Origin: Promethearchaeota archaeon
GTDB taxonomy: Archaea > Asgardarchaeota > Lokiarchaeia > Sigyniarchaeales > SOKP01
Length of the DNA: 64,000 nucleotides
Assembly (NCBI GenBank): GCA_030599585.1
Contig: JAUVNS010000007.1
Span: 128,001-192,000, forward strand
Reading direction: 5' to 3'
Both the position numbers and the translations under genes were made by a program. How positions within the stretch are numbered: position 1 is the first letter of the stretch; every line of letters begins with the position of its first letter. The notes under the pieces were generated by a model, which was not told where the DNA came from, ran no database searches, and saw only the letters and a program-made list of their open reading frames with translations. Shown here in pieces: positions 964 through 16,204 of this stretch.

Positions 964-2466
964 TTATGTTCTTACCAAAACATCATGAGCATTCAAAAAT
1001 TCCTTCAAATCCTGGATTCTCAAAAGATTAAAATGAAATAAGGAAGCAGCTAATACGGCTTCAGCTCCGTTATTGATTGCTTCTTTAAAGTGCTCTTTAT
1101 TTCCAGCTCCCCCTGATGCGATCACAGGTACGGACACAATATCTGTAATACATCGGATCAAATCAAGATCATATCCCGAATTAGTACCATCTCTATCCAT
1201 GCTTGTAACTAATAGTTCTCCTGCCCCCTTATCAACAACTTTTTTTACCCATTCTAATACATCGAGTCCAGTAGGTTTTGTTCCGCTATGTGAATACACT
1301 TCCCATGATTCACCTTTTTTTTTTGCATCGATAGCGACAACGATTGATTGAGATCCGAATTTAATAGCACCTTTAGTAATTAGGTTTGGATCATTTATAG
1401 CTGCTGAATTTATACTTACTTTTTCTGCTCCTGCCTTGATAATTACCGTCATGTCCTCAATGGTTTTAATTCCGCCACCTACAGTTAATGGGATGAAGAT
1501 TTCTTCTGCTACAGATCGAATTGTATTAAGCATGCTTTTCCGTCCTTCTAGGGTTGCCGAAATGTCTAAGAAAACTAATTCGTCAGCACCATTTTCGTTA
1601 TAATATCGTGCTAAATCAACTGGATCTCCACTATCTCGTAGATTTTTGAATTTGACTCCCTTTACTACTCTTCCATTCTTTACATCTAGACAAGGGATAA
1701 TGCGTTTTACTAGTCGAGATTTGTGAAGATCGTCAAGGAAGGAGCTTAAAAGTTTGAGAGGAATATTTCGATTATATAATGCTTTTCCTACTATAACTCC
1801 ATCAGCATACTCTAGTGCTTTAACTACATCACCTATGCTTGAAATTCCGCCTGAGGCAATAATTCTGGTGTTAGGCTTTTTCTCTTTTTTCAATTCCACA
1901 TAGAGATTTGTATTTAAACCGGTTGAAGTCCCATCTTTCATTATGTCAGTGACAATAAAATCTTGAATTCCCAAATTCTCCAATTTAGAAAAAACTTTAA
2001 ATATATCTAAATTTGTATCAAATTGCCATCCCTTCGTACGGATCGTTTTATTGGAAGAATCTAATGCAATTGCAATCTTGCTTCTATACTGTTTAGATAA
2101 AATCTCTAAAAGTTTGTCATCATCAAACGCTATGGTACCTAAGATTATACGGTCAGTTCCCTGATCTATTAATTCTTCTATCGTTTCAATACTCCGTATT
2201 CCCCCCCCAATCTGAACTTTAATCCCAGCTTGTTTTGAAAGTTTAATCAGATTCAAAATAACGCGATAACTAAGATTATTCCGAAAATCTCCTTTTAATG
2301 CACCATCTAAATTAATAATATGCATCCACCAGGCACCAGCTTTGATGAATTGTCTTAGAATAGCTACGGGGTCATTAGAATATGTGATTTGTTTAGAAAA
2401 GTCACCCTGAGTAAGTCTGACTACTTTTCCCTCTCTTATATCCATGGCAGGAATTATAGTTTTTAT
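964..2466 (-). CDS. hisAF: Fused HisA (ProFAR isomerase) - HisF (IGP synthase cyclase subunit); start probably ATA at 2466 rather than ATG at 2445
   Basis: N-half has '[19 protein letters not shown]', 'QIGGGIRS', 'ASGGI'. C-half has '[17 protein letters not shown]', '[10 protein letters not shown]', 'TSMDRDGT'. No stop at the junction (~1715). The conserved IIPA lies upstream of the ATG. Confidence 0.93.
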
Positions 2467-3718: not shown

Positions 3719-4843
3719 TTAATTTCCTCCTTTTAAAAATAATTTGATTTCATCAATAACTTTTACCATATTTTCTTGGAGTCCGATACTGATTCTTAGG
3801 TTGTTAATCATGTCTGATGACGAATAATACCTTACAAGAATGCCTTTTGAATAGAGATATTCGTAAAGGGTTTTTGGAATCTCTGGAGATTCGAAAGTGA
3901 GTAACACATAACACGCTTCACTTTGATGGATCCAAAAGTTTTTGTACTGATTTTGAACTATTATAAGTTGATTAATGAACCATTCTCTTATTTTTTTCAT
4001 TTCTGTAATTCTCTGATCAACTAGTGGGCTAGATAATGCCGCAAAAGCAGCTTTTTGACCAGCAATGTTAACATTATAAGGTTGTTTAATTGATACTATA
4101 ACTTTTCGAATCTCGTCTGGCATAATTCCATATCCCACTCGGAGCCCTCCTAAACCATAAGCCTTACTAAAAGTTCGAAGAACAACGAGATTCTCGTAAT
4201 TAGGAACCCACTTAGCAAGAGATTGAGAATCTGAGAACTCTATGTAAGCTTCATCAATGACCACTAAGACTGGTAGAGAGACTAGACGTTCAATGAAGCT
4301 TTCTGATACAACGCTTCCGTCTGGATTATTTGGTCGGGCTATAAAAATGATTTTAGACCTTAGCGCTTCTTCTAAAAATTGGTCTTCGTTAAGTACATAT
4401 TTAGCAAACGACTCTTTTTTGACTAATTTTTGAGAGACGGCTAAATTTTTAATTCCATTTACTTGAGCTAAGAACGAAATCATCCCAAATGTAGGGGATA
4501 CAGAGAGAATTTTGTCAGAAGGGTTAGCGTATGCTTTCATTATAAGTTCTATGAGCTCATCCGAACCTGAACTAATTATAAAATTTTTGGAGTCTATTTT
4601 TTCTTTTTTCCCTAAGACTTGTATTAAATTTGAACACAGCATGTCTGGATAATTACCAATATTTGTGAGGGACCTTAATGCTCCCAGAACTTCTGGAAGT
4701 GGATCGAAAGGATTTTCATTGCCATCAAGTTTTATTATTTTTTCAAGTGGGATATTGAGTTCTTCTGCTATGGTTTCTAAAGGTTTAACTCCACTATAAG
4801 TTTTTATTGAAGCAAGATGATCTGCAGTTTTGATTTTAGGGAT
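3719..4843 (-). CDS. hisC: Histidinol-phosphate aminotransferase; true start lies upstream of the ORF-track ATG (4642), probably ATC at 4843
   Basis: 'GSDELI', 'PNNPDG', 'IDEAYIEF', 'LRTFSKAYGLGGLRVGY'. The frame stays open for 67 codons upstream of 4642 and contains the conserved 'IIKLDGNENPF' and 'NYPD' motifs. Confidence 0.93.
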   Translation of the reverse strand: MPKIKTADHLASIKTYSGVKPLETIAEELNIPLEKIIKLDGNENPFDPLPEVLGALRSLTNIGNYPDMLCSNLIQVLGKKEKIDSKNFIISSGSDELIELIMKAYANPSDKILSVSPTFGMISFLAQVNGIKNLAVSQKLVKKESFAKYVLNEDQFLEEALRSKIIFIARPNNPDGSVVSESFIERLVSLPVLVVIDEAYIEFSDSQSLAKWVPNYENLVVLRTFSKAYGLGGLRVGYGIMPDEIRKVIVSIKQPYNVNIAGQKAAFAALSSPLVDQRITEMKKIREWFINQLIIVQNQYKNFWIHQSEACYVLLTFESPEIPKTLYEYLYSKGILVRYYSSSDMINNLRISIGLQENMVKVIDEIKLFLKGGN

Positions 4844-6168
4844 TAGTATCTCCTCCTAGCCGCTTCTGAGTGAGCAGTAAGTTCTTCGCTAATAGCTAAT
4901 TTCTCAGCTAAAGGAGCTATAGATTTAACTGTTTTAGTATCTAAAGCTATAAGACTAGTAATTTTGAGAAAATCTATTACTGACAATGGAGACGAAAATT
5001 TAGCGGCACCACCCGTTGGCATTACATGACTGGGACCAGCAACATAATCTCCCATCACTTCACAAGATGATTCTCCGAGGAAAATTCCTCCCGCATTTTT
5101 AATTCGGGGTAAGATTTTTTCTTGATCCTTCATAATGATAGATAAGTGCTCTGGGGCAAAATCGTTAATTGCTGATATAGCATCTTTAGTGTTAGTTACT
5201 AAAATTATTCCGCCATTATTTTCTATTGCATATCGAGCTTTTTCAGCGCGAGACAGTTTTTGTATTTGCTCTTCAACTGAATCTCTGACTATATTTGCGA
5301 TATCTTTACTTGTTGTAAGTAAAATTGGAATTGATAAAAAATCGTGTTCAGCTTGTGCGAGTAAATCAGAAGCAATTAAATGAGGATCCGCAGATTCATC
5401 GGCTAATATAACTGCCTCTGTAGGACCAGTGATACCATCAATTCCTACAATTCCATATACTTCCCGCTTAGCTAAGGTAACGAAGATATTACCGGGGCCA
5501 ACAATTTTATTAACTTTTGGAACTGTTTCAGTACCAAAAGCTAGTGCTGCAATTGCTTGAGCTCCTCCTATCTGGAAAACCCTAAGGTTAACTTTATAAT
5601 CACGCATTAAATTACAAGTAGCTAAAATTATAGGAGAAATTGGAGACGGACTTACAATTATTACTTCTTCAACTCCCGCTACAATTGCAGGGCAAACGCT
5701 ATGAATAACCGTAGATGGGAGCGGAGCGGATCCTCCAGGCACGTAAAATCCGACTCTTTGGATCGGAGTTATTATCTGCCCTAAAGTTCCTCCTAAATCA
5801 CTTGTAGTCCAAGAAGAAGTAGGTTGTTTTTTGTGAAACGCTAATATTCTATGTATCGTTTTATCTAAAACCTCTTTAATTTTAGTGTCGATAGAATTTA
5901 ACGCTGCTTCCATTTGCTCTACTTCTATTTCAATTGAATTAGTTATATCATTTTTTTCTAATTTTTTAGTCCATTCAATTAGAGCTAGATCGCCTTTTTT
6001 TATAACATCGTCAATTATACTTTTAACAACTTCTTGTGGTGTTAAGGGTTTACCGAAAATCTTAATAATCTGCTCGTTAATTTGGGGTGATGCTGGAGTA
6101 TTAACAATTGATTTGCGTATTAGTATAGATTTTTGTGCTTCCTCTAAGGAATATATTGGGATCATCAA
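4843..6168 (-). CDS. hisD: Histidinol dehydrogenase
   Basis: 'YVPGG', '[14 protein letters not shown]', 'GPGNIFV', 'DLLAQAEHD', 'APEHL', '[15 protein letters not shown]'. Confidence 0.97.
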
Positions 6169-7172
6169 TTTTCCTCCAAATTCTTAAGTAAATTTTTGTA
6201 GCGTTTAGGTTCCTCTTCAAAGATATAAAGAGTTGGAGCTACCACTACACCACTACCACCTATTTCGCGTAAACCTTTTATGGCATCTTGTAATTTTTCT
6301 TTTTCGACGATAATGTGAATCGCATACATTTTCTCTCCTTTTTTAGTATAAACCGATGATACCGTTGGTCCATCAAGTCCTTCTAAACTTTTTTTAGAAA
6401 AAATCGATTCAGCGATATCTTTACCATTTTCTCCCCTCATATTTACAAAGACAGACACGAATCTCTTTGCTCTGAGTGTTGCTTCAAAATATTCAATCAA
6501 TCCACGAGTGACCTTCATAACAGCTTCATTTCCTAAAGCAGTTCGATTCCCAATCAACACTGCCTCAGAAGTCATTATTTTCCCTCCACTAATTCTTTTT
6601 AATCTATTATCTTTTAGAGTCTTTCCCGTAGAGACAAGATCAACGATTATTTCGCTATAGCCAAGCTCAGGATAAACCTCTAAGGATCCATTTCCGCTCA
6701 CTATCTCATAAGAAATTCCACACGAAGTTAAAAATTGCTTAGTAAGTTTTGGAAACTTAGTTGCAACTCTAATATGTGAATTTTTTCCTTTTTGTTTTAT
6801 TTCTTCAATTGAATATTCCAACCAATCTTCAGGAACAGCAATTTCAAGACTGCATTTTCCAAAACCTAATGCATCATGTACAACTACTACATCTTTTTTC
6901 GTATCAGGCAAATACTCACGAACTAAGTCATATCCAACTATTCCAAGCTCTATCGACCCATTAAGGACACCTCTGACAATATCCACTTGGCGTTGATACA
7001 CCAATTGGAGATCAATGGGACCATTTATAGAGCCAATATACTGTCTGTTATTCCTTTGCACGTTAAACCCACATTCTTTCAAGAAATCTTGGGTTTCTTT
7101 TTCCATTCTCCCTTTTGAAGGTATGGCTAGTCTCACTTGCCGTGATTTATAATAAAACTCTTCTTCTTTCAC
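6165..7172 (-). CDS. hisG: ATP phosphoribosyltransferase, long form with C-terminal regulatory domain
   Basis: '[10 protein letters not shown]', 'RVATKFP', '[17 protein letters not shown]'; GTG start behind GGAGG. Confidence 0.95.
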
Positions 7173-8080
7173 TTGTTTCGCCTCCCTAATTCATTTATAA
7201 TTTCACTTAGAGTAATTTTTTGTGTTGCCATTAAGACTAGGACAAAATATGTTAAGTCAGCAATTTCCCAGATAAGGTTATCTCTGTCAGTAAAATTTAT
7301 CACTTCTAAGCATTCTTCTTTGATTTTTGAAAGTAATAAATTATTGTCCTCAGCTAATCTTTTAGTGTATGATTCTTCCACTGAAGAATCCTCTATTCGG
7401 TTATTTATTAGATCATAGAGAACATTTAATGAAAAATCCTTATCAAAAAAACAGGAATATGTCCCGGTGTGGCAAGCATATCCAGTTTGTTGGACTTTAA
7501 ACAGGAGAGAGTCGTTATCACAGTCATAATGGATTTTTTTTACTGCTTGACTGTTTCCTGATTCCTCTCCTTTTATCCATAGTTTATTTCTCGATCTACT
7601 GAAATAGGTTGCCTTCCGGGTGAGTACTGTATTTTTCAACGATTCTTTAGAAGAATATGCGAGCATTAGTACAGTATTGTTCTGATCTTGTACTATTGTC
7701 GGAATAAGTCCTGATCCTTTCTCGAAATCGAGAAGATTTAACAGGCTATTATCTATTAGTGAGTAATTCATTTTTGACTTAAAATTAAAGGTTTCATATC
7801 GGTTTGGTAATGATAGAGAAATAGGTTTATAGCCTTTTTTGTATAGCTGCTTTTTCATTTCATTCTGAGCTTCTTTTATCTCAAACCTTAGATCTATATT
7901 TTGAGAAATTTCTTTCAAATTTTTATTGTTCCCAATCAGTGTATCGAAATCTTGCTCATTAATTTTTAAAACTAAAGTAAAGATAACATCCCAATTCCTT
8001 TTTAAAAATACCTCTTTAATAAACTGAGTAATTCCCCCTACTGGTTCCAAGTCCTTTTTTTCCACCTTTAATATTAACAT
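7169..8080 (-). CDS. hisIE: Bifunctional PR-AMP cyclohydrolase / PR-ATP pyrophosphatase with a ~110-aa N-terminal extension
   Basis: 'GLIPTIVQD', '[16 protein letters not shown]', 'DCDNDSLL', '[10 protein letters not shown]', then HisE 'SYTKRL...KIKEE...EIADLTY'. Confidence 0.93.
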
Positions 8081-8093
8081 AAAATACCCTCAA

Positions 8094-8196
8094 AACTGAA
8101 TTAGATTTCAGTTCAATTAAATTCCAATGAATACATGATAAAAAAATTATCTTAATTCATCGGAATTATTTATAATGTAGATGATGATGTTCCGAT
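8094..8196 (-). promoter_or_regulatory. Candidate his attenuator: alternative RNA helices between the leader ORF and hisIE
   Basis: On the minus-strand RNA, AUCGGAA (8196-8190) is complementary to UUCCGAU (8165-8159). AAUUCCGAUGAAU (8167-8155) pairs with AUUCAUUGGAAUU (8132-8120), 13 bp with one G-U, enclosing GAUAA-UUUUU-UUAUC. Hairpin AACUGAA-AUCUAA-UUCAGUU (8113-8094) abuts the GAGGG SD of hisIE. Confidence 0.65.
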
Positions 8197-8276
8197 CTGA
8201 TAACATTAAAGCTATTCGATCCATCAACAAAGACTAAACTCAATAGATTAACACCCTTAGTTTTTAGAAATATCAT
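8166..8276 (-). CDS. Putative his operon leader peptide MIFLKTKGVNLLSLVFVDGSNSFNVIRSEHHHLHYK (alternative TTG start at 8243 behind GGGTG)
   Basis: Translated by hand: ATG at 8276, CAT CAT CAT CTA CAT cluster at 8189-8175, TAA at 8168-8166. Same strand as hisIE and 85 nt upstream of it. Confidence 0.75.
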   Translation of the reverse strand: MIFLKTKGVNLLSLVFVDGSNSFNVIRSEHHHLHYK

Positions 8277-8457
8277 ATTAATTCACTATTGAGTCCTTAT
8301 TTTAGAGATAACTATACTTGTATTAACTATTTTATGCACCGTAGCCTAAAAAAGTTAACTATATTTGGTGTATTGAAAAAATTATAATTTTAACAATTAT
8401 TATGTTAGTTTAGATTCAATAATAATATTTTTAGAAAATATAGATGGAGAAAGTCTT

Positions 8458-9498
8458 ATGGTAAAAGGAAATAAGTATGGAACGCATAGAGTTATTGAAC
8501 CTAAGGGGACACTTCCTCAACCTGCGTTTAAAATTTCAAATAATGTGACGATTTATGACAACGAGATATTAATCGATGTCGATTATTTGAACATCGACTC
8601 TGCAAGTTTCACTCAATTAAAAGAAGAAGCGGAAGGAAATCTAGATAAGATTAAGAATAAGATTATGGAAATCGTTCAAGAAAGAGGAAAAATGCAAAAC
8701 CCAGTTACGGGTTCGGGAGGGATGTTAATAGGGAAGGTAGAAATGATAGGTGATAACTTAATTGATAAAATAGAATTACAGGTAGGAGATAAAATAGCAT
8801 CATTAGTATCTCTTTCATTAACTCCTCTCAAAATTGAAAAAATCTTAGACATTAATCCAGATATAGATCGAGTTAAGATTGAGGGAAAAGCTATCCTTTT
8901 TGAAAGCGGAATTTACGCAAAATTGCCTGGAGATATGGAAGCAACTCTAGCGTTAGCAGCACTCGATGTTGCTGGAGCTCCCGCACAAGTAAAGAATCTG
9001 GTGAAGGAAGGCGATAATGTTCTAATTCTTGGTGCTACGGGCAAATCTGGACTCATGTGTTCATATATGGCTAAAAAAATGGCTGGTAATAAAGGAAAAA
9101 TCATAGGACAGGCTAGAAACGAGACTCGAGCCGAATTTCTTAGAGAAACCGAGTTTTGCCATGAAGTTATTGTCGCAGATGTATTAAATCCGATAAATAT
9201 CTTAGAAGAAACCCTACAAGCTAATGGTGGGAATGAAGTAGATATAACCATTAATTGTTTGAGCATCCCCAATTCAGAATTATCTTCCATCCTTCCCGTG
9301 AGAGATGAAGGTATTGTATATTTCTTTTCAATGGCCACCAGTTTCACTAAAGCAGCTTTGGGAGCTGAGGGTATAGGAAAAGATGTGACCATGATAATAG
9401 GTAATGGATATACTAAAAATCATGCGCAAATTACCTTAGATTTATTACGAGAATCTGGAACTCTTAGAAGAATTTTTGAGGAAAAATATATAAAATAA
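8458..9498 (+). CDS. kdd: L-erythro-3,5-diaminohexanoate dehydrogenase
   Basis: 'KYGTHRVIEPKGTLPQPA', 'NIDSASF', 'QNPVTGSGGML', 'ALDVAGAPAQ'; located near the kam genes. Confidence 0.95.
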   Translation: MVKGNKYGTHRVIEPKGTLPQPAFKISNNVTIYDNEILIDVDYLNIDSASFTQLKEEAEGNLDKIKNKIMEIVQERGKMQNPVTGSGGMLIGKVEMIGDNLIDKIELQVGDKIASLVSLSLTPLKIEKILDINPDIDRVKIEGKAILFESGIYAKLPGDMEATLALAALDVAGAPAQVKNLVKEGDNVLILGATGKSGLMCSYMAKKMAGNKGKIIGQARNETRAEFLRETEFCHEVIVADVLNPINILEETLQANGGNEVDITINCLSIPNSELSSILPVRDEGIVYFFSMATSFTKAALGAEGIGKDVTMIIGNGYTKNHAQITLDLLRESGTLRRIFEEKYIK

Positions 9499-9545
9499 AA
9501 GTTAAATCAATATCTAAAAAAAAAAGAAATTTTAATATTAGTTTA

Positions 9546-9869
9546 TTATCCGGGTGGAGTTTGTCCAATTGATGAATAGGCTTCTTCTATAGTGGCCCAA
9601 GTCTCTATTGAATATTTAAATCCAGGGACTGTTAAATACATGTTTAACATAGCCATAGCGCGTCTTCTAATTGCTTCTAATTTCCCTTCCTTTACCAGCG
9701 TTACATTAAGTGATTTTATACCATCCATATCGGCATTTATAGCATTAGGCACAAGAGTTTCCCCAAGACTATCATCTGGTGGAAATTTTTTATTAACTTC
9801 AATACCTTTTTTTATCATCTCTGCTGTAGACTCACCAGGCCAACGAATAAAGGTAACTATATAAGGCAT
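9546..9869 (-). CDS. Hypothetical small protein
   Basis: 107-aa ORF with GAGG upstream; 'KFPPDDSLGETLVP'; U-tract after the stop. Confidence 0.7.
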   Translation of the reverse strand: MPYIVTFIRWPGESTAEMIKKGIEVNKKFPPDDSLGETLVPNAINADMDGIKSLNVTLVKEGKLEAIRRRAMAMLNMYLTVPGFKYSIETWATIEEAYSSIGQTPPG

Positions 9870-10106
9870 TTATATTTCCTCTTTTGATTATTAAATTTTT
9901 ATACGGATTTTAAAAAACTCGCAATTAAAATTAATTCAGATCTCTTATTTAAATATTTACATTTTTGTCAATGGTATCTAATTTAGCCTATAATTTTAAA
10001 AATTGTAGAAAATAAACTAAGAATAGTGGAGTTAGAGATTAATCAATATATTTTTATTGGCTTCCTAGGAATATAATCTAAAAATTATGCAAAATAATTA
10101 AAATAG

Positions 10107-11231
10107 CTACTTTTCAATCAATCTTCCAATAGGATAAGATCCATACTTCTTAACAGTATCAATCATTGCTTTAACATTTTCATATTTACAGGTACTCAAA
10201 ATATCTGAACCCGCGCCTAAGATGAATCCCCCACCTTTAGCGGCATCCTGAAGAGCTTGTTTGGTTGCTTCTATTGTGGCCTCTATAGAGCCGTATGTTA
10301 AAACATAAGTGGCAGAAATATTACCGATAAGACAGATGTCTGCTCCGTATTCTTCTTTGAGAGGCTTTAACCTCATCCCCGATTCGTACTCTAAAGGATC
10401 AATCCCATCTACCCCAGAATTAATAAGATATGGCATAGTTTCCGTAACGTCTCCATCTGAATGAATAAGTAATTTAGCACCGTGCTTATGTGCATTCTTT
10501 GCTAGTTCTTTGTAAACTGGAGTTACAATTTCATTCCAATACTTAGGATTAAAAATGGTGCTTCCCTTTAGCGCCCAATCATCGCAAATAAATACCAAAT
10601 CAATTTCTTTTTCAAAAAAACAGTTCTGTAATTCTTTTGTAATTCGCCCTAAAGCTTTAGCGAGTTCTTTAACTAAATTAAAGTGTTTCCGGATCATATA
10701 TGCAAACTTGTTTATCCCTATCATTGACCAAGACGCGAACGCAACGGAACCTCCAGTCGGAATTGTAACCAAACCTTTTTGAAGATAACTGTCCCAAATT
10801 TTTTTAAATGATTTAAAGTGAATATCTCCAGCAGGTTCCCATGTATTGATATAAGCGATCCATTCTTTCAGTAATTCTGGTGTCTTTAAAACCCCATCCC
10901 GATACCAATCGCCTTCGTAATAGCTAGCCCATTCTGTGACACCGGAGGACTTTATATTATATTCTTTTAAAATTTCTTCTGGAACTTCAGGCTTTTTATG
11001 AGAGTGCGTTCTAATTCTATCGTAATGATACCAAATTGAATCAAATCCCATATGAATTGCTGCCTCATACATGATATGCTTAGAAAGATGTTTACTTTCA
11101 TCAATTCCCATTTTTTCTACCACTTTTTTTGTGAATGGGTAATCGAAGAATTGTGCCAATGTGGGGACACGGTCAGGTTCTTCGTGCTCTAAGGTTTTAA
11201 TTATTCTTTCATGTACGTTCATGTCAATCAT
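10107..11231 (-). CDS. Uroporphyrinogen decarboxylase / MtaA-CmuA superfamily protein
   Basis: 'HERIIKTLEHEEPDRVP', 'ICDDWA', 'IHSDGDV', 'LIGNIS', 'GGGFILGAG'. Confidence 0.85.
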   Translation of the reverse strand: MIDMNVHERIIKTLEHEEPDRVPTLAQFFDYPFTKKVVEKMGIDESKHLSKHIMYEAAIHMGFDSIWYHYDRIRTHSHKKPEVPEEILKEYNIKSSGVTEWASYYEGDWYRDGVLKTPELLKEWIAYINTWEPAGDIHFKSFKKIWDSYLQKGLVTIPTGGSVAFASWSMIGINKFAYMIRKHFNLVKELAKALGRITKELQNCFFEKEIDLVFICDDWALKGSTIFNPKYWNEIVTPVYKELAKNAHKHGAKLLIHSDGDVTETMPYLINSGVDGIDPLEYESGMRLKPLKEEYGADICLIGNISATYVLTYGSIEATIEATKQALQDAAKGGGFILGAGSDILSTCKYENVKAMIDTVKKYGSYPIGRLIEK

Positions 11232-11404
11232 TACAAGTATTTTTCAGTGAGAGATAATAAATACATTAAATTTTATTTTCAAATAAATTTTGTGAGGTAT
11301 AAGACGAACATGAACCTTTAGAATATTTCTCCCTCAAACTCCTAAAACTTTAACAAATAAAAAAAATTAATTACAATAATAAATTAAGATTTCTGGAATT
11401 TATT

Positions 11405-12643
11405 ATGAAAGTAAATAGGCGAATGGAACTATTTGGGAAAGTAAGCGACGAAGATTGGAATAACTGGCGATGGCAATTTAGAAATAGGATTACTACTCTC
11501 GAGGATCTCAAAGAATTCATTCCGCTAACAAAGGAGGAAGATGATCCTAGTATCTTGGAAAAGATGAGAATGGCTATCACCCCCTATTATTTATCATTAA
11601 TCGATCCTCATGATCCATACGATCCCATTCGCAAACAAGCAATCCCTACAATCCATGAACTCCATAAATCTTCTGCTGATTTAGTAGATCCGCTTCACGA
11701 AGATGTTGACTCTCCCACTCCTGGGTTAACTCATAGATATCCAGATCGAGTATTATTTTTAATTACGGAAAACTGTTCTATGTACTGTAGACACTGCACT
11801 CGAAGGAGATTTGCAGGCCATCACGATAAAGCACCTCCAAAGGATCAGATAGATAAATGTATAGATTATATTCAGGAAACACCCGCAATTAGAGATGTCT
11901 TATTATCAGGAGGCGATGCGATGCTTATCTCAGATAAATTATTAGAGGACATCTTGATAAAGTTAAAAGAAATCTCGCATGTAGAAATCGTTCGGTTAGG
12001 TTCTAGAAGTCCGGTTGTTATGCCACAACGTATTACTCCTGATTTATGCGAGATGCTTGAACAATATCATCCCATATGGTTTAATACTCACTTCAACCAT
12101 CCGAATGAAATTACTGAAGACTCTAAGAGAGCATGTGAAATGTTAGCCGATGCCGGTATCCCTCTCGGAAACCAATCAGTCCTATTAAGAGGTGTAAATG
12201 ATTGTATCCATGTTATGAAAAAATTAGTCCAAGAACTAGTAAAAATTAGAGTTCGACCGTATTACATTTACCAATGCGATTTATCCGTAGGATTAGGGCA
12301 TTTTAGAACAAGTGTTGCTCAAGGAATTGAAATTATTGAGGGTCTAAGAGGACATACATCTGGTTTATGTGTCCCAACATTTGTTGTAGATGCTCCGGGT
12401 GGCGGAGGGAAAATTCCTGTAATGCCTGATTACACAATCTCTCAAGGAAATTCGAGAGTTGTTTTAAGAAATTTTGAGGGAGTTATTACGACGTACGAGG
12501 AACCAACTAATTACATACCAGATTGTCATTGCGAAGATTGCGAAAAACAAATAGGGGTTTCAGCATTATTAAGTGGTCAAAAGATGACTATTGAACCCGA
12601 TGATTTAGAAAGAAACTTAAGAAAAAAAAAACTAAGTAAATAG
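11405..12643 (+). CDS. kamA: Lysine 2,3-aminomutase (radical SAM/PLP)
   Basis: 'WNNWRWQ', 'THRYPDR', CxxxCxxC 'CSMYCRHCTRRR', 'DAPGGGGKIP'. Confidence 0.97.
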   Translation: MKVNRRMELFGKVSDEDWNNWRWQFRNRITTLEDLKEFIPLTKEEDDPSILEKMRMAITPYYLSLIDPHDPYDPIRKQAIPTIHELHKSSADLVDPLHEDVDSPTPGLTHRYPDRVLFLITENCSMYCRHCTRRRFAGHHDKAPPKDQIDKCIDYIQETPAIRDVLLSGGDAMLISDKLLEDILIKLKEISHVEIVRLGSRSPVVMPQRITPDLCEMLEQYHPIWFNTHFNHPNEITEDSKRACEMLADAGIPLGNQSVLLRGVNDCIHVMKKLVQELVKIRVRPYYIYQCDLSVGLGHFRTSVAQGIEIIEGLRGHTSGLCVPTFVVDAPGGGGKIPVMPDYTISQGNSRVVLRNFEGVITTYEEPTNYIPDCHCEDCEKQIGVSALLSGQKMTIEPDDLERNLRKKKLSK

Positions 12644-12748
12644 TAACTTCTAGTATAGTATCTTTGAACATCGGCAATTTTAAAATTTTGGCTCAGTTAT
12701 TTTAGCATATTTTAAAATCATACCCTCTTTTAATTATTTGAAGCACAG

Positions 12749-13801
12749 ATGTTGTCTGGTAATGAGGACTTTCCTACTCTTCTAATCAACGCCATAAAGA
12801 AGAATAAAGTCATATCAATAATTGGTTTATCTAAAAATGTAAGTAAAACTACCACATTAAATCACATAATTAATTTACTAAAGGATAAGCAAACAATTGG
12901 AGTCACATCCATAGGTCGAGACGGAGAACCCTACGATGCGATTACAGAACTCCCAAAACCTAAGATTATAGTTGAAAAAGGAACAATCTTTGCTACAGCA
13001 GAAGATTCTTTAAAGAATAGCGATATAGAGACCGTACTTATTGAAAGCACTAATTTCACTACGCCACTCGGGATCATCAATGTTTACAAAGCAAAAAATA
13101 AAGGTTATGTTGAATTAGCTGGCCCTTCAATGAATAAGCAATTAAAGCACCTCTGTAATGACATGTTAAAGATAGGTTGTGATGTGATTTTTATTGATGG
13201 TGCATTTGATAGGAGATCATTTGCAACACCCCTTATTTCTGATGCAACAATATTATCCACGGGAGCGTCTGTATCCAGAAACATGGAGAAAGTTGTTGAT
13301 CAAACTTCCCATATTTATGATTTATTTACCTTAGATGTAATTAAAGACGATAAAATCAGGAAAATCAGCAAAGATATCTTACTCACTGCTCAAGTAGGAA
13401 TTATAAATGATGACTATTCGACTAAGAAATTAGAAGAATCTACTGCTTTGGGATCGTCTAAAGTAATCTTTGACCAAATAACGAAAAACGCTAAATATCT
13501 GGTAATAAAGGGAGCGATAACCGATAACATTTTAGATGAATATGTAACTAATAAAAAAGTAAAAGACTTTAATGTAATTGCCACAGATCCTACTAAATTA
13601 TTTATTAGTAAGCAAGTTTTCTATAAATTTATAAAAAAGGGGGGTCGCTTAAAGGTGCTAGATCGAATTAATTTAATTGCAATTACGGTTAATCATACAT
13701 CTCCACTAGGGTATGAATTTGAAAATAACCAGTTCATGAGGTTATTACAAGAGAGAATTAACGTTCCTATATTCAATCTTGGTCCTTGTGACAACTTATA
13801 A
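12749..13801 (+). CDS. kamB: KamB-like protein (lysine 5,6-aminomutase accessory/reactivase subunit)
   Basis: 'ISIIGLSKNVSKTTTLN', 'TSIGRDGE', 'IDGAFDR', 'ILSTGA'; sits between kamA and kamD as in clostridial clusters. Confidence 0.75.
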   Translation: MLSGNEDFPTLLINAIKKNKVISIIGLSKNVSKTTTLNHIINLLKDKQTIGVTSIGRDGEPYDAITELPKPKIIVEKGTIFATAEDSLKNSDIETVLIESTNFTTPLGIINVYKAKNKGYVELAGPSMNKQLKHLCNDMLKIGCDVIFIDGAFDRRSFATPLISDATILSTGASVSRNMEKVVDQTSHIYDLFTLDVIKDDKIRKISKDILLTAQVGIINDDYSTKKLEESTALGSSKVIFDQITKNAKYLVIKGAITDNILDEYVTNKKVKDFNVIATDPTKLFISKQVFYKFIKKGGRLKVLDRINLIAITVNHTSPLGYEFENNQFMRLLQERINVPIFNLGPCDNL

Positions 13802-13846
13802 TTTAAACTTTAGATTATTAAAATTATCTTTAGAGATGAAACTTAC

Positions 13847-15415
13847 ATGAATAAATTAAATTTGGATTTTTCATTCGTTGAAACTGCGAGGAAATTAGCT
13901 CGGAATATTGCTAATGATACTCAAAAGTTCATTGATAAACACACTACTACTTCAATTGAAAGAACGATTTGTAGATTATTAGGGATCGATGGGGTTGATG
14001 AATTTGGAGTTCCATTACCTAACTTAGTAGTAGATCACATTCAACAAAAAGAACATATCAATAATGGCATTGCCATGTACCTTGGGAATACCATTTTACA
14101 TACTAACTTATCTCCTCAAAATATTGCAGAAAAAATATCTAAAAACCAATTAAACATGACAGAATTTCCCTTGAACGACATATCTGAGATAAAAAATGTA
14201 TTATCATCTATAGTCCAGAAAAACTTGGATATAATTAAGCGAAACAAGCAAGATAGAGAAGAATTAATTAATAGATATGGAGAAAAAACGGAACCACTAA
14301 TATATTTGATAGTTGCTACTGGAAATATTTTTGAAGACATGGTTCAAGCACAAGCAGCAGCAAGACAAGGTGCCGATGTTATCGCAGTAATACGCTCTAC
14401 GGGGCAAAGTTTATTAGATTATGTTCCTTATGGTGCCACAACAGAAGGTTTTGGAGGCACTTATGCAACGCAAGAAAATTTCCGTCTTATGAGGTCAGCC
14501 TTAGATAAGGTTAGCGAAGAAGAAGGTAGATATATTAGGCTCACTAACTACTGTTCGGGACTTTGTATGCCAGAAATTGCTGCTATGGGAGCATTTGAAA
14601 GATTAGATATGATGTTAAATGATGCGTTATATGGAATTTTATTTAGGGATATAAACATGCAAAGAACGATAATCGATCAATATTTTTCAAGGATGATAAA
14701 TGCATATGCTGGAGTAATCATCAATACAGGGGAGGACAATTATCTTACCACTGATGACGCTTATGATGCTGCTCATACAGTGTTGGCATCACAATTCATT
14801 AACGAACAATTTGCGAAATTAGCCGGTTTAAGTGAAGAGCAAATGGGATTAGGACATGCGTTTGAAATGAACCCTGAGATGGAAAATGGATTTGTTTACG
14901 AACTTGCACAAGCGCAAATGGCAAGAGAAATATTTCCAAGTGCTCCTTTGAAATACATGCCTCCAACAAAATATATGACGGGAAACATTTTTAAGGGTCA
15001 CGTTCAAGATGCGTTATTCAATATCATTACAATTCTCACAAATCAGAGAATTCACTTACTCGGAATGTTAACCGAAGCAATTCACACGCCATTTATGTCA
15101 GATCGGGCTTTATCCATTGAAAATGCGAAATATATTTTTAAAAATATGAAAAATTTAGGAGAAGAAATTACGTTTAAAGAAGGCGGGATAATACAACAAC
15201 GCGCAAACGAAGTATTGAAGAAAGCTCTTGTACTTCTAATAAAAATAGAAAGGGAGGGTTTATTCAAGACAATTGAAAAAGGGATTTTCGCGCAGATAAA
15301 AAGGCCAATTGATGGTGGGAAAGGATTAGATGGTGTAATTCCTAAAAGCAAAGAATATTTTAATCCTTTCTTGGAAATCATGTCAAAAGAACTACACTTA
15401 GGAGGCGAAAAATAA
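13847..15415 (+). CDS. kamD: D-lysine/beta-lysine 5,6-aminomutase alpha subunit
   Basis: 'IVATGNIFED', 'GQSLLDYVPYGATTEGFGGT', 'NYCSGLCMPEIA', 'KYMPPTK'. Confidence 0.97.
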   Translation: MNKLNLDFSFVETARKLARNIANDTQKFIDKHTTTSIERTICRLLGIDGVDEFGVPLPNLVVDHIQQKEHINNGIAMYLGNTILHTNLSPQNIAEKISKNQLNMTEFPLNDISEIKNVLSSIVQKNLDIIKRNKQDREELINRYGEKTEPLIYLIVATGNIFEDMVQAQAAARQGADVIAVIRSTGQSLLDYVPYGATTEGFGGTYATQENFRLMRSALDKVSEEEGRYIRLTNYCSGLCMPEIAAMGAFERLDMMLNDALYGILFRDINMQRTIIDQYFSRMINAYAGVIINTGEDNYLTTDDAYDAAHTVLASQFINEQFAKLAGLSEEQMGLGHAFEMNPEMENGFVYELAQAQMAREIFPSAPLKYMPPTKYMTGNIFKGHVQDALFNIITILTNQRIHLLGMLTEAIHTPFMSDRALSIENAKYIFKNMKNLGEEITFKEGGIIQQRANEVLKKALVLLIKIEREGLFKTIEKGIFAQIKRPIDGGKGLDGVIPKSKEYFNPFLEIMSKELHLGGEK

Positions 15416-16204
15416 ATGGGTGGTGGACTCTATTCTACAAAAAAAAAAGAATATGACAAGAATTTAGATCTAACTAATATCAGACCGTATGGAGATACAA
15501 TGAACGATGGAAAAATGCAGGTTAGTTTTACTCTTCCTGTAGATGATGGAGAAAAAGCTATATTTGCAGCATTAGAATTGGGTAGAAAGATGGGGATAGA
15601 AGAACCTTCAGTAGCATATCATATATCTTTAGATAAGGGATTCACTTATTTTGTGTTATATGGACGTCTTAAACATTCGATTGATTATACTAAAATAAAA
15701 GTAGAATCTGTAGAAGTTGAAGCGATGACGATTAAAGAAATAAATGATTTTATTAAAGCCGAAATAAAACGTAAATTAGTAGTTATTGGCGCTACAACCG
15801 GGACTGATGCACACACGGTAGGAATCGATGCTATTATGAACATGAAGGGATTTGCTGGTCATTATGGACTAGAGCGATATGAGATGATTGAAGCCTATAA
15901 TTTTGGAAGCCAGGTAACAAATGAAGAATTCGTAAAAAAAGCAATAGATCTTGACGCTGACGTACTTCTTGTTTCTCAAACTGTAACGCAGAAAGATATC
16001 CATGTGAGAAATTTAACTAATCTAGTCGATCTACTGGAAGCTGAAGAGTTAAGAGACAAAATCATTTTAGTCTGTGGTGGTCCAAGAATTTCGAACGAAC
16101 TTGCGAAAGAATTAGGATTTGATGCTGGTTTTGGCCCTAACACTTTTTCTGAGAATGTAGCAAGTTATTTTGTGAAAGAAATTTATAATAGAAAATATAA
16201 ATGA
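15416..16204 (+). CDS. kamE: Lysine 5,6-aminomutase beta subunit (B12/PLP-binding)
   Basis: 'PYGDTMNDGK', DxHxxG 'GTDAHTVGIDAIMNMKG'. Confidence 0.97.
   Translation: MGGGLYSTKKKEYDKNLDLTNIRPYGDTMNDGKMQVSFTLPVDDGEKAIFAALELGRKMGIEEPSVAYHISLDKGFTYFVLYGRLKHSIDYTKIKVESVEVEAMTIKEINDFIKAEIKRKLVVIGATTGTDAHTVGIDAIMNMKGFAGHYGLERYEMIEAYNFGSQVTNEEFVKKAIDLDADVLLVSQTVTQKDIHVRNLTNLVDLLEAEELRDKIILVCGGPRISNELAKELGFDAGFGPNTFSENVASYFVKEIYNRKYK

Follow-up and report, generated by a model that had tools for sequence, protein, structure and literature searches.

A conserved histidine-rich leader ORF upstream of an Asgard archaeal his operon has the layout of a bacterial ribosome-read amino-acid gauge

We analysed a 64,000-nt stretch of DNA (the window; positions 128,001-192,000 of contig JAUVNS010000007.1, assembly GCA_030599585.1) from a Promethearchaeota archaeon. 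On its minus strand lies a histidine biosynthesis operon with the gene order hisIE-G-D-C-B-H-AF. The hisIE and hisG products match NF002747 and TIGR00070, respectively, above the NCBIfam cut-offs, while the names hisD, hisC, hisB, hisH and hisA/F are our reading of the translations. A kdd gene (lysine fermentation, by NCBIfam) is divergent from the operon and starts at 8458. The space upstream of hisIE holds a small upstream ORF (uORF) and several helices of its RNA, as follows.

7169-8080, minus strand: hisIE, first gene of the operon, ATG at 8080.
8087-8091, minus strand: hisIE Shine-Dalgarno (SD) sequence, GAGGG (GGGGG in most relatives).
8093-8114, minus strand: hairpin P2, AACUGAA with UUCAGUU, directly before the hisIE SD.
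8120-8132, minus strand: 3' arm (D) of helix P1, segment 3.
8133-8154, minus strand: variable interior of P1, holding a lineage-specific U7 run (8146-8140) and an inner GAUAA/UUAUC hairpin.
8155-8167, minus strand: 5' arm (C) of P1, the segment 2 region, beginning inside the uORF stop codon.
8166-8276, minus strand: His leader uORF of 36 codons, C-terminal H-H-H-L-H-Y-K-stop; His codons at 8189-8181 and 8177-8175, stop TAA at 8168-8166.
8181-8228, minus strand: hairpin of the His codons with an upstream GAUG, the window's stand-in for helix A:B of its relatives.
8190-8196, minus strand: segment 1 (AUCGGAA), whose pairing with segment 2 is not conserved.
8236-8254, minus strand: 3' arm of helix P0 (8246-8236) and its upper-stem arm (8254-8247, partner 8282-8275), from prediction and conservation; the upper stem would bury the start codon of the uORF.
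8283-8287, minus strand: AGUGA, putative SD of the uORF.
8286-8296, minus strand: 5' arm of P0 (core ACUCAAU) from the predicted whole-leader fold, closely preceding the uORF start.

Several features of the surrounding genes were also observed. The window's HisIE carries a 110-residue N-terminal extension that matches no NCBIfam model, and hisA and hisF appear to be fused, as one 493-aa ORF (964-2445, minus strand), judging from the translation and the tblastn pattern. The hisC start in the window is apparently an ATA at the hisD/hisC junction (4843-4847, minus strand), the first hisC ATG lying about 66 codons in; in a close relative, L064, a hisC ATG overlaps the hisD stop. The ATA could be a near-cognate start, a mutation or an assembly error. 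On the plus strand, 8458-16204 holds a lysine-fermentation cluster that adjoins the his operon divergently in many relatives, and we read KamA-like and lysine 5,6-aminomutase-like genes from its translations.

The uORF stop lies 85 nt upstream of the hisIE ATG. Among 5821 small ORFs located no more than 200 nt upstream of a long ORF in the host genome, this uORF is the only one with at least four His among its last ten codons. We collected 25 related loci with the same type of hisIE, which represent 23 distinct leaders from 15 species genomes in two genera and from metagenome contigs. Every one of the 25 loci (23 of 23 distinct leaders) has a uORF of 34-54 codons whose stop is 75-87 nt before hisIE, with 4-7 His within the last ten codons and 0-2 elsewhere; these leaders are related, so such counts overstate independence and are not independent trials. 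The front half of the peptide diverges freely, and what is kept is the start codon, the SD-like motif, the frame and the His cluster. All leaders begin with ATG or TTG, preceded in 22 of 23 by a GUGA-, GGGA- or GGUG-like motif at 5-9 nt, and their length variants stay in frame. The His frame is open across the last 25 codons in 23 of 23 leaders, compared with 6 of 23 for the +1 frame and none of 23 for the +2 frame, although the His frame had been picked by its last 12 codons. An Ile-rich ORF in the +1 frame was considered as the true leader and rejected, being open in only those six. The His codons of all leaders together are CAT in 111 cases and CAC in 5, against 65% CAT genome-wide; RNA pairing therefore does constrain them, and the preference may reflect pairing with AUGAUG or a higher sensitivity of the wobble-read codon.

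Within the same genus, seven genomes have a different version of hisIE (about 400 residues), mostly at the same site beside kdd, and no His uORF. The leader thus goes with a particular version of the operon head. In the seven loci with the long hisIE (L046-L052) we noticed a common motif, TCCAC(G/A)AGAAT, about 40-50 nt before the hisIE ATG, which is a possible alternative regulatory site. Searches for related loci with HisIE and HisG returned distant his operons without the uORF layout, or one known relative. The operon body itself is a mosaic when window positions 4843-8080 are compared with relatives: hisD is 97% and hisG 52% identical to the window in L021; hisIE and hisG are 78% and hisD 49% identical in L009; the values for L017 are 77% (hisIE), 54% (hisG) and 86% (hisD); and L014 likewise belongs to this comparison. 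This pattern suggests recombination between two operon versions.

The RNA of the leader folds better than expected. A preliminary description of this DNA had proposed a switch between mutually exclusive helices, and the segments it named are present: AUCGGAA at 8196-8190, UUCCGAU at 8165-8159, and a 13-bp helix of 8167-8155 with 8132-8120 that contains one G-U pair. Dinucleotide shuffles did not reach the folding energy of 8196-8078 (z -2.9) or of 8300-8078 (z -3.7) in any of 200 cases each. The 13-bp helix, called 2:3 in that description and P1 here, is the fold it assigned to the stalled (ON) state, and this assignment is supported. In the alignment of 23 sequences, 97% of P1 cells are paired and 5 of 13 pairs show two-sided changes (for example, G-C to A-U in L097); the conserved helix measures 13-16 bp across leaders. 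The hairpin said to abut the SD is also real at 8114-8093 and conserved (P2; 95% of cells paired, two-sided changes in 2 of 8 pairs), three relatives having CUAAA/UUUAG in place of CUGAA/UUCAG. P2 is AU-rich, is followed by at most two unpaired U, and is retained in both modelled states in most leaders. A third helix, A:B, joins AUGAUGU about 14 codons upstream to ACAUCAU in the His codons (89% paired, 2 of 9 pairs two-sided). Its A arm has been deleted in the window's lineage, where the His codons can pair with another GAUG. Covariation of P1, P2 and A:B taken as one structure scored higher than in any of 500 shuffles, and pairing fell to 25-47% in slid controls; the three helices were read from the same sequences on which they were tested, which favours them over their slid versions. 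Finally, the P0 core ACUCAAU/AUUGAGU is predicted in 17 of 20 leaders, including one clade in which the 3' arm lies 12 nt (four codons) further out, and P0 is predicted to bury the uORF start region. Neither P0 nor the pairing of the His codons with upstream codons figured in the preliminary description, whose helices make up the 3' half of this larger element.

The stop codon and P1 are interlocked, as the last two bases of the stop codon are the first two bases of the helix. Archaeal (Haloferax) ribosomes protect 27 nt, 12 nt of it upstream of the P site (PMC7261190), from which we calculated about 9 nt of protection 3' of the A-site codon. In this computation, P1 starts within the footprint of a ribosome at the stop. 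Masking the stop to +9 costs 14.6 kcal/mol in the window's leader and a median of 13.0 kcal/mol among leaders, compared with a median of 1.2, a 99th percentile of 6.9 and a maximum of 10.7 kcal/mol at 600 ordinary stops of the genome; the window and 20 of 23 leaders lie beyond all 600. Together with the footprint of about 9 nt, this cost means that a ribosome at the stop must break P1. In the same model, the helix would be left intact by a ribosome stalled at the first His codons. That a ribosome at the stop melts segment 2, anticipated in the preliminary description as part of its OFF state, is supported as the trigger, and the idea of a ribosome-position switch tied to the His codons gains support from the conserved His uORF and its stop overlapping P1.

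Our proposal is a ribosome-read histidine gauge that controls the his operon. What the sequence comparison shows is a uORF whose final stretch carries 4-7 His codons and whose stop coincides with the beginning of P1. We propose that a ribosome loads on the uORF during transcription, after which P0 would close over the start; this closure would allow roughly one ribosome per transcript, so that there is a single decision. Under a shortage of His-tRNA, the ribosome would, from the footprint geometry, stall 2-8 codons before the stop, P1 and P2 would fold, little RNA would be left single-stranded, and the operon would be ON. When His is plentiful, the ribosome would reach the stop and cover the 5' arm of P1, leaving about 40 nt of nascent RNA open. 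Ribosome position at the time segment 3 is made would decide the fold. As a last and least certain step, the open RNA may let the termination factor FttA/aCPSF1 load, cut and end transcription before hisIE. The His-sensing ribosome switch made up of the first four steps is likely to be correct; for the whole chain, sensor together with FttA/aCPSF1 termination output, we put the chances slightly below even.

Several results bear on the termination output. The genome encodes a protein of the aCPSF1/FttA family, which exceeds the TIGR03675 cut-off with 885 bits. The U-rich nascent RNA to which FttA binds lies no more than 36 nt from the 3' end (PMC11616081), a lokiarchaeal aCPSF1 acts on U-tract terminators (PMC8716108), and aCPSF1 has been linked to premature termination near promoters (PMC8448881). 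With the polymerase 60-70 nt past the stop, the modelled number of unpaired U in the FttA window rises from about 2.5 to about 5, partly by construction of the masking. The U content of the freed segment hardly exceeds background (0.42 vs. 0.36), and UUUU occurs in it in 9 of 23 leaders, compared with 48% of comparable upstream regions; P2 has a U-rich, conserved 3' arm, but this arm is paired. The aCPSF1 of M. maripaludis binds best to two U4 tracts, and many aCPSF1-dependent sites are without any U4 tract (PMC8716108). The ON fold is clear, and no conserved strong alternative (OFF-state) helix was found among the leaders; P1 could therefore refold once the ribosome leaves. The public RNA runs yielded only sparse contigs, containing 5-17% of words or fewer, and none of them spanned the leader.

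Other outputs and other readings of the locus were weighed against this proposal. The same His sensor could act on translation, with segment 3 and the freed interior, or else segment 2 once released, covering the hisIE SD and start, and the lost hisIE translation may then trigger polarity. P2 abuts the SD, UUCCGA can pair with UUGGGG in 14 of 21 leaders, mycobacterial poly-Cys uORFs offer a precedent (10.1101/834739), and opening the SD-to-AUG region costs a mean of 1.7 kcal/mol more with segment 2 masked (4.2 to 5.9), the rise exceeding 0.5 in 14 of 21 leaders. However, shuffled sequences show the same rise (mean z -0.2), a result that also goes against the suggestion in the preliminary description that segment 3 occludes the SD; furthermore, the opening energy of the whole leader is flat across ribosome positions (9.3-10.1), and segment 2 forced onto the SD costs 6-11 kcal/mol. 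We consider a translational output unlikely, if worth keeping in mind. A post-transcriptional output, in which melted P1 exposes the finished mRNA to an endonuclease so that the operon mRNA is degraded, or P1 and P2 protect a processed end, appears rather improbable. It requires only the melting of P1, the best-supported step, and FttA is itself a ribonuclease (PMC11616081), but the burial of the uORF start by P0 would better fit a one-time co-transcriptional decision. Re-initiation, or a frame slip at starved His codons, would draw on P1 and P2 bringing the stop spatially near the SD and on a +1 frame that continues to the end of segment 2 in many leaders. We judge it very improbable: re-initiation would turn the operon on at plentiful His, the wrong sign for a biosynthetic operon, while a slip would have to contend with the +1 frame being closed in most leaders (see above) and with CAU-CAU, which gives no re-pairing for a +1 slip. 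Some other pairings were tried and set aside. Segment 2 can pair with the SD or the P2 3' arm in 14-15 of 21 leaders, yet such folds are 6-11 kcal/mol less favourable than P1. A cascade like that of the His attenuator, with segment 3 joined to the P2 5' arm, is not conserved in the CUAAA/UUUAG clade. Several 5-8 bp matches of the SD to segment 3 or to the P1 interior are persuasive by eye and no better than shuffles.

The exact model of the preliminary description, in which helix 1:2 competes with 2:3 and exposure of U7 terminates transcription, is highly improbable. The 7-bp match of segments 1 and 2 is perfect in the window, and 1:2 would form with a probability of 0.91-0.94 in an RNA that stops at 8150, provided that the sequence upstream of 8215 is unavailable. 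However, once segment 3 exists, 2:3 wins with a probability of 1.0 whether segment 1 is free or not, so that the covering of segment 1 assumed in that model is not needed, and in the whole-leader fold the predicted probability of 1:2 is 0.000. Covariation was found for 2:3 and the SD-adjacent hairpin and not for 1:2, which is paired in 80% of cells, the same as in shuffles, and whose score lies below the shuffled mean and was reached by 484 of 500 shuffles. In most relatives segment 1 lies about 14 codons upstream of the His tract; it sits next to the His codons in the window because the window's lineage lost about 14 codons. The U7 run likewise fails as the signal, as it is present in only 3 of 23 leaders, all near-identical to the window, and masking segment 2 leaves five of its seven U in the same small loop in the transcription window tested. 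A further alternative is that no His sensing takes place, the hairpins being constitutive and tuning stability or translation, with CAU kept only for its pairing with AUGAUG, or the peptide binding metal. The strong CAT excess would fit such a reading, which we nevertheless hold to be quite improbable: although the front half of the peptide varies, its open frame, start and SD persist; no other uORF of the genome is as His-rich near its end, and this one lies before the his operon; and other leaders match their own amino acid.

These other leaders are uORFs of the same genome (contigs by our own handles):

C24:120101-120202, plus strand: before leuA, 11 Leu in the last 12 codons.
C40:259556-259374, minus strand: before cimA, Ile/Leu-rich.
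C21:128885-128778, minus strand: before an archaeal-type leuS, Leu-rich.
C28:118556-118639, plus strand: before ileS, Ile-rich.
C11:165048-165122, plus strand: before a TrpB-like gene, 3 Trp.

The stop-masking cost is 7.2 for leuA, 11.1 for leuS and 8.1 for cimA, each exceeding the 99th background percentile (6.9). No stop-overlapping helix is present in the ileS and TrpB-like leaders, whose masking cost does not exceed that percentile. In the ileS leader (L104, C28:118540-118700, plus strand) the interior of the post-stop hairpin, AUCCACAUCC, is by eye complementary to the uORF start region, GGAUGUGGAU. This alternative pairing is much stronger than any in the His leader, and the ileS leader is perhaps the best place to study the OFF fold. 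Thr-rich small ORFs also lie before thrS (C9:231546-231472, minus strand) and before a gene that we read as Sua5/TsaC-like (C4:43241-43110, minus strand); the one before thrS has no strong post-stop helix and may be due to chance.

The layout invites comparison with the enterobacterial hisL attenuator (His_leader), in which a short ORF with His clustered near its end likewise precedes the his operon and sits in a chain of hairpins. The hosts differ, and so do the lengths, 34-54 codons for the Asgard leader vs. 16 codons for hisL. Whereas hisL has an intrinsic terminator, the Asgard leader lacks a GC-rich hairpin followed by a U run (0 terminator-like sites), as the preliminary description had stated, and no antiterminator takes its last hairpin apart during stalling. 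Its strong conserved helix is instead that of the stalled state, broken by a ribosome at the stop. When the window was searched against Rfam at E up to 1, only a miRNA model came up, below its threshold, and six relatives gave no match at the gathering score. In hisL, stalling at the His codons is the signal (PMC9291695). From its sequence, the Asgard leader would work like the hisL attenuator but is not a member of that family. The short-ORF poly-Cys attenuators of mycobacteria (10.1101/834739) resemble the Asgard set in that several independent amino-acid-rich uORFs per genome precede matching genes, and both are without an intrinsic terminator. However, the poly-Cys uORFs are leaderless and a duplex sequesters the downstream RBS (10.1101/834739). 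The Asgard uORF has an SD-like site, and none of its specific anti-SD pairings passed the shuffle control. Leader control can also depend on a termination factor, as with Rho in E. coli tnaC. In Rho-dependent control of Salmonella corA (PMC13675443), structure or ribosome position gates access of the factor, analogous to what we propose for FttA, although both factor and signal are different. In archaea, TrpY and Tar also give product-responsive control of amino-acid biosynthesis operons, but they are DNA-binding proteins acting at promoters rather than an RNA leader (PMC6737238).

A 2021 paper stated that no attenuation was known in archaea, and the literature we searched gave no later report of it and none of leader-peptide gauges there. 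We conclude that the element upstream of hisIE is real and conserved, and that, as far as sequence can tell, it has the layout of bacterial ribosome-read amino-acid gauges in an Asgard archaeon. It is possible, if somewhat doubtful, that it belongs to a genome-wide Asgard set of ribosome-read attenuators. In these, a protective hairpin would melt as a ribosome arrives at the leader stop codon, and the nascent RNA would pass to FttA, a CPSF73-type nuclease. Such a mechanism, if true, would follow a logic opposite to that of bacterial terminator hairpins, and it would be the first case of transcription attenuation shown in archaea. It would also tie together bacterial attenuation, eukaryotic uORF control and CPSF73-type premature termination.
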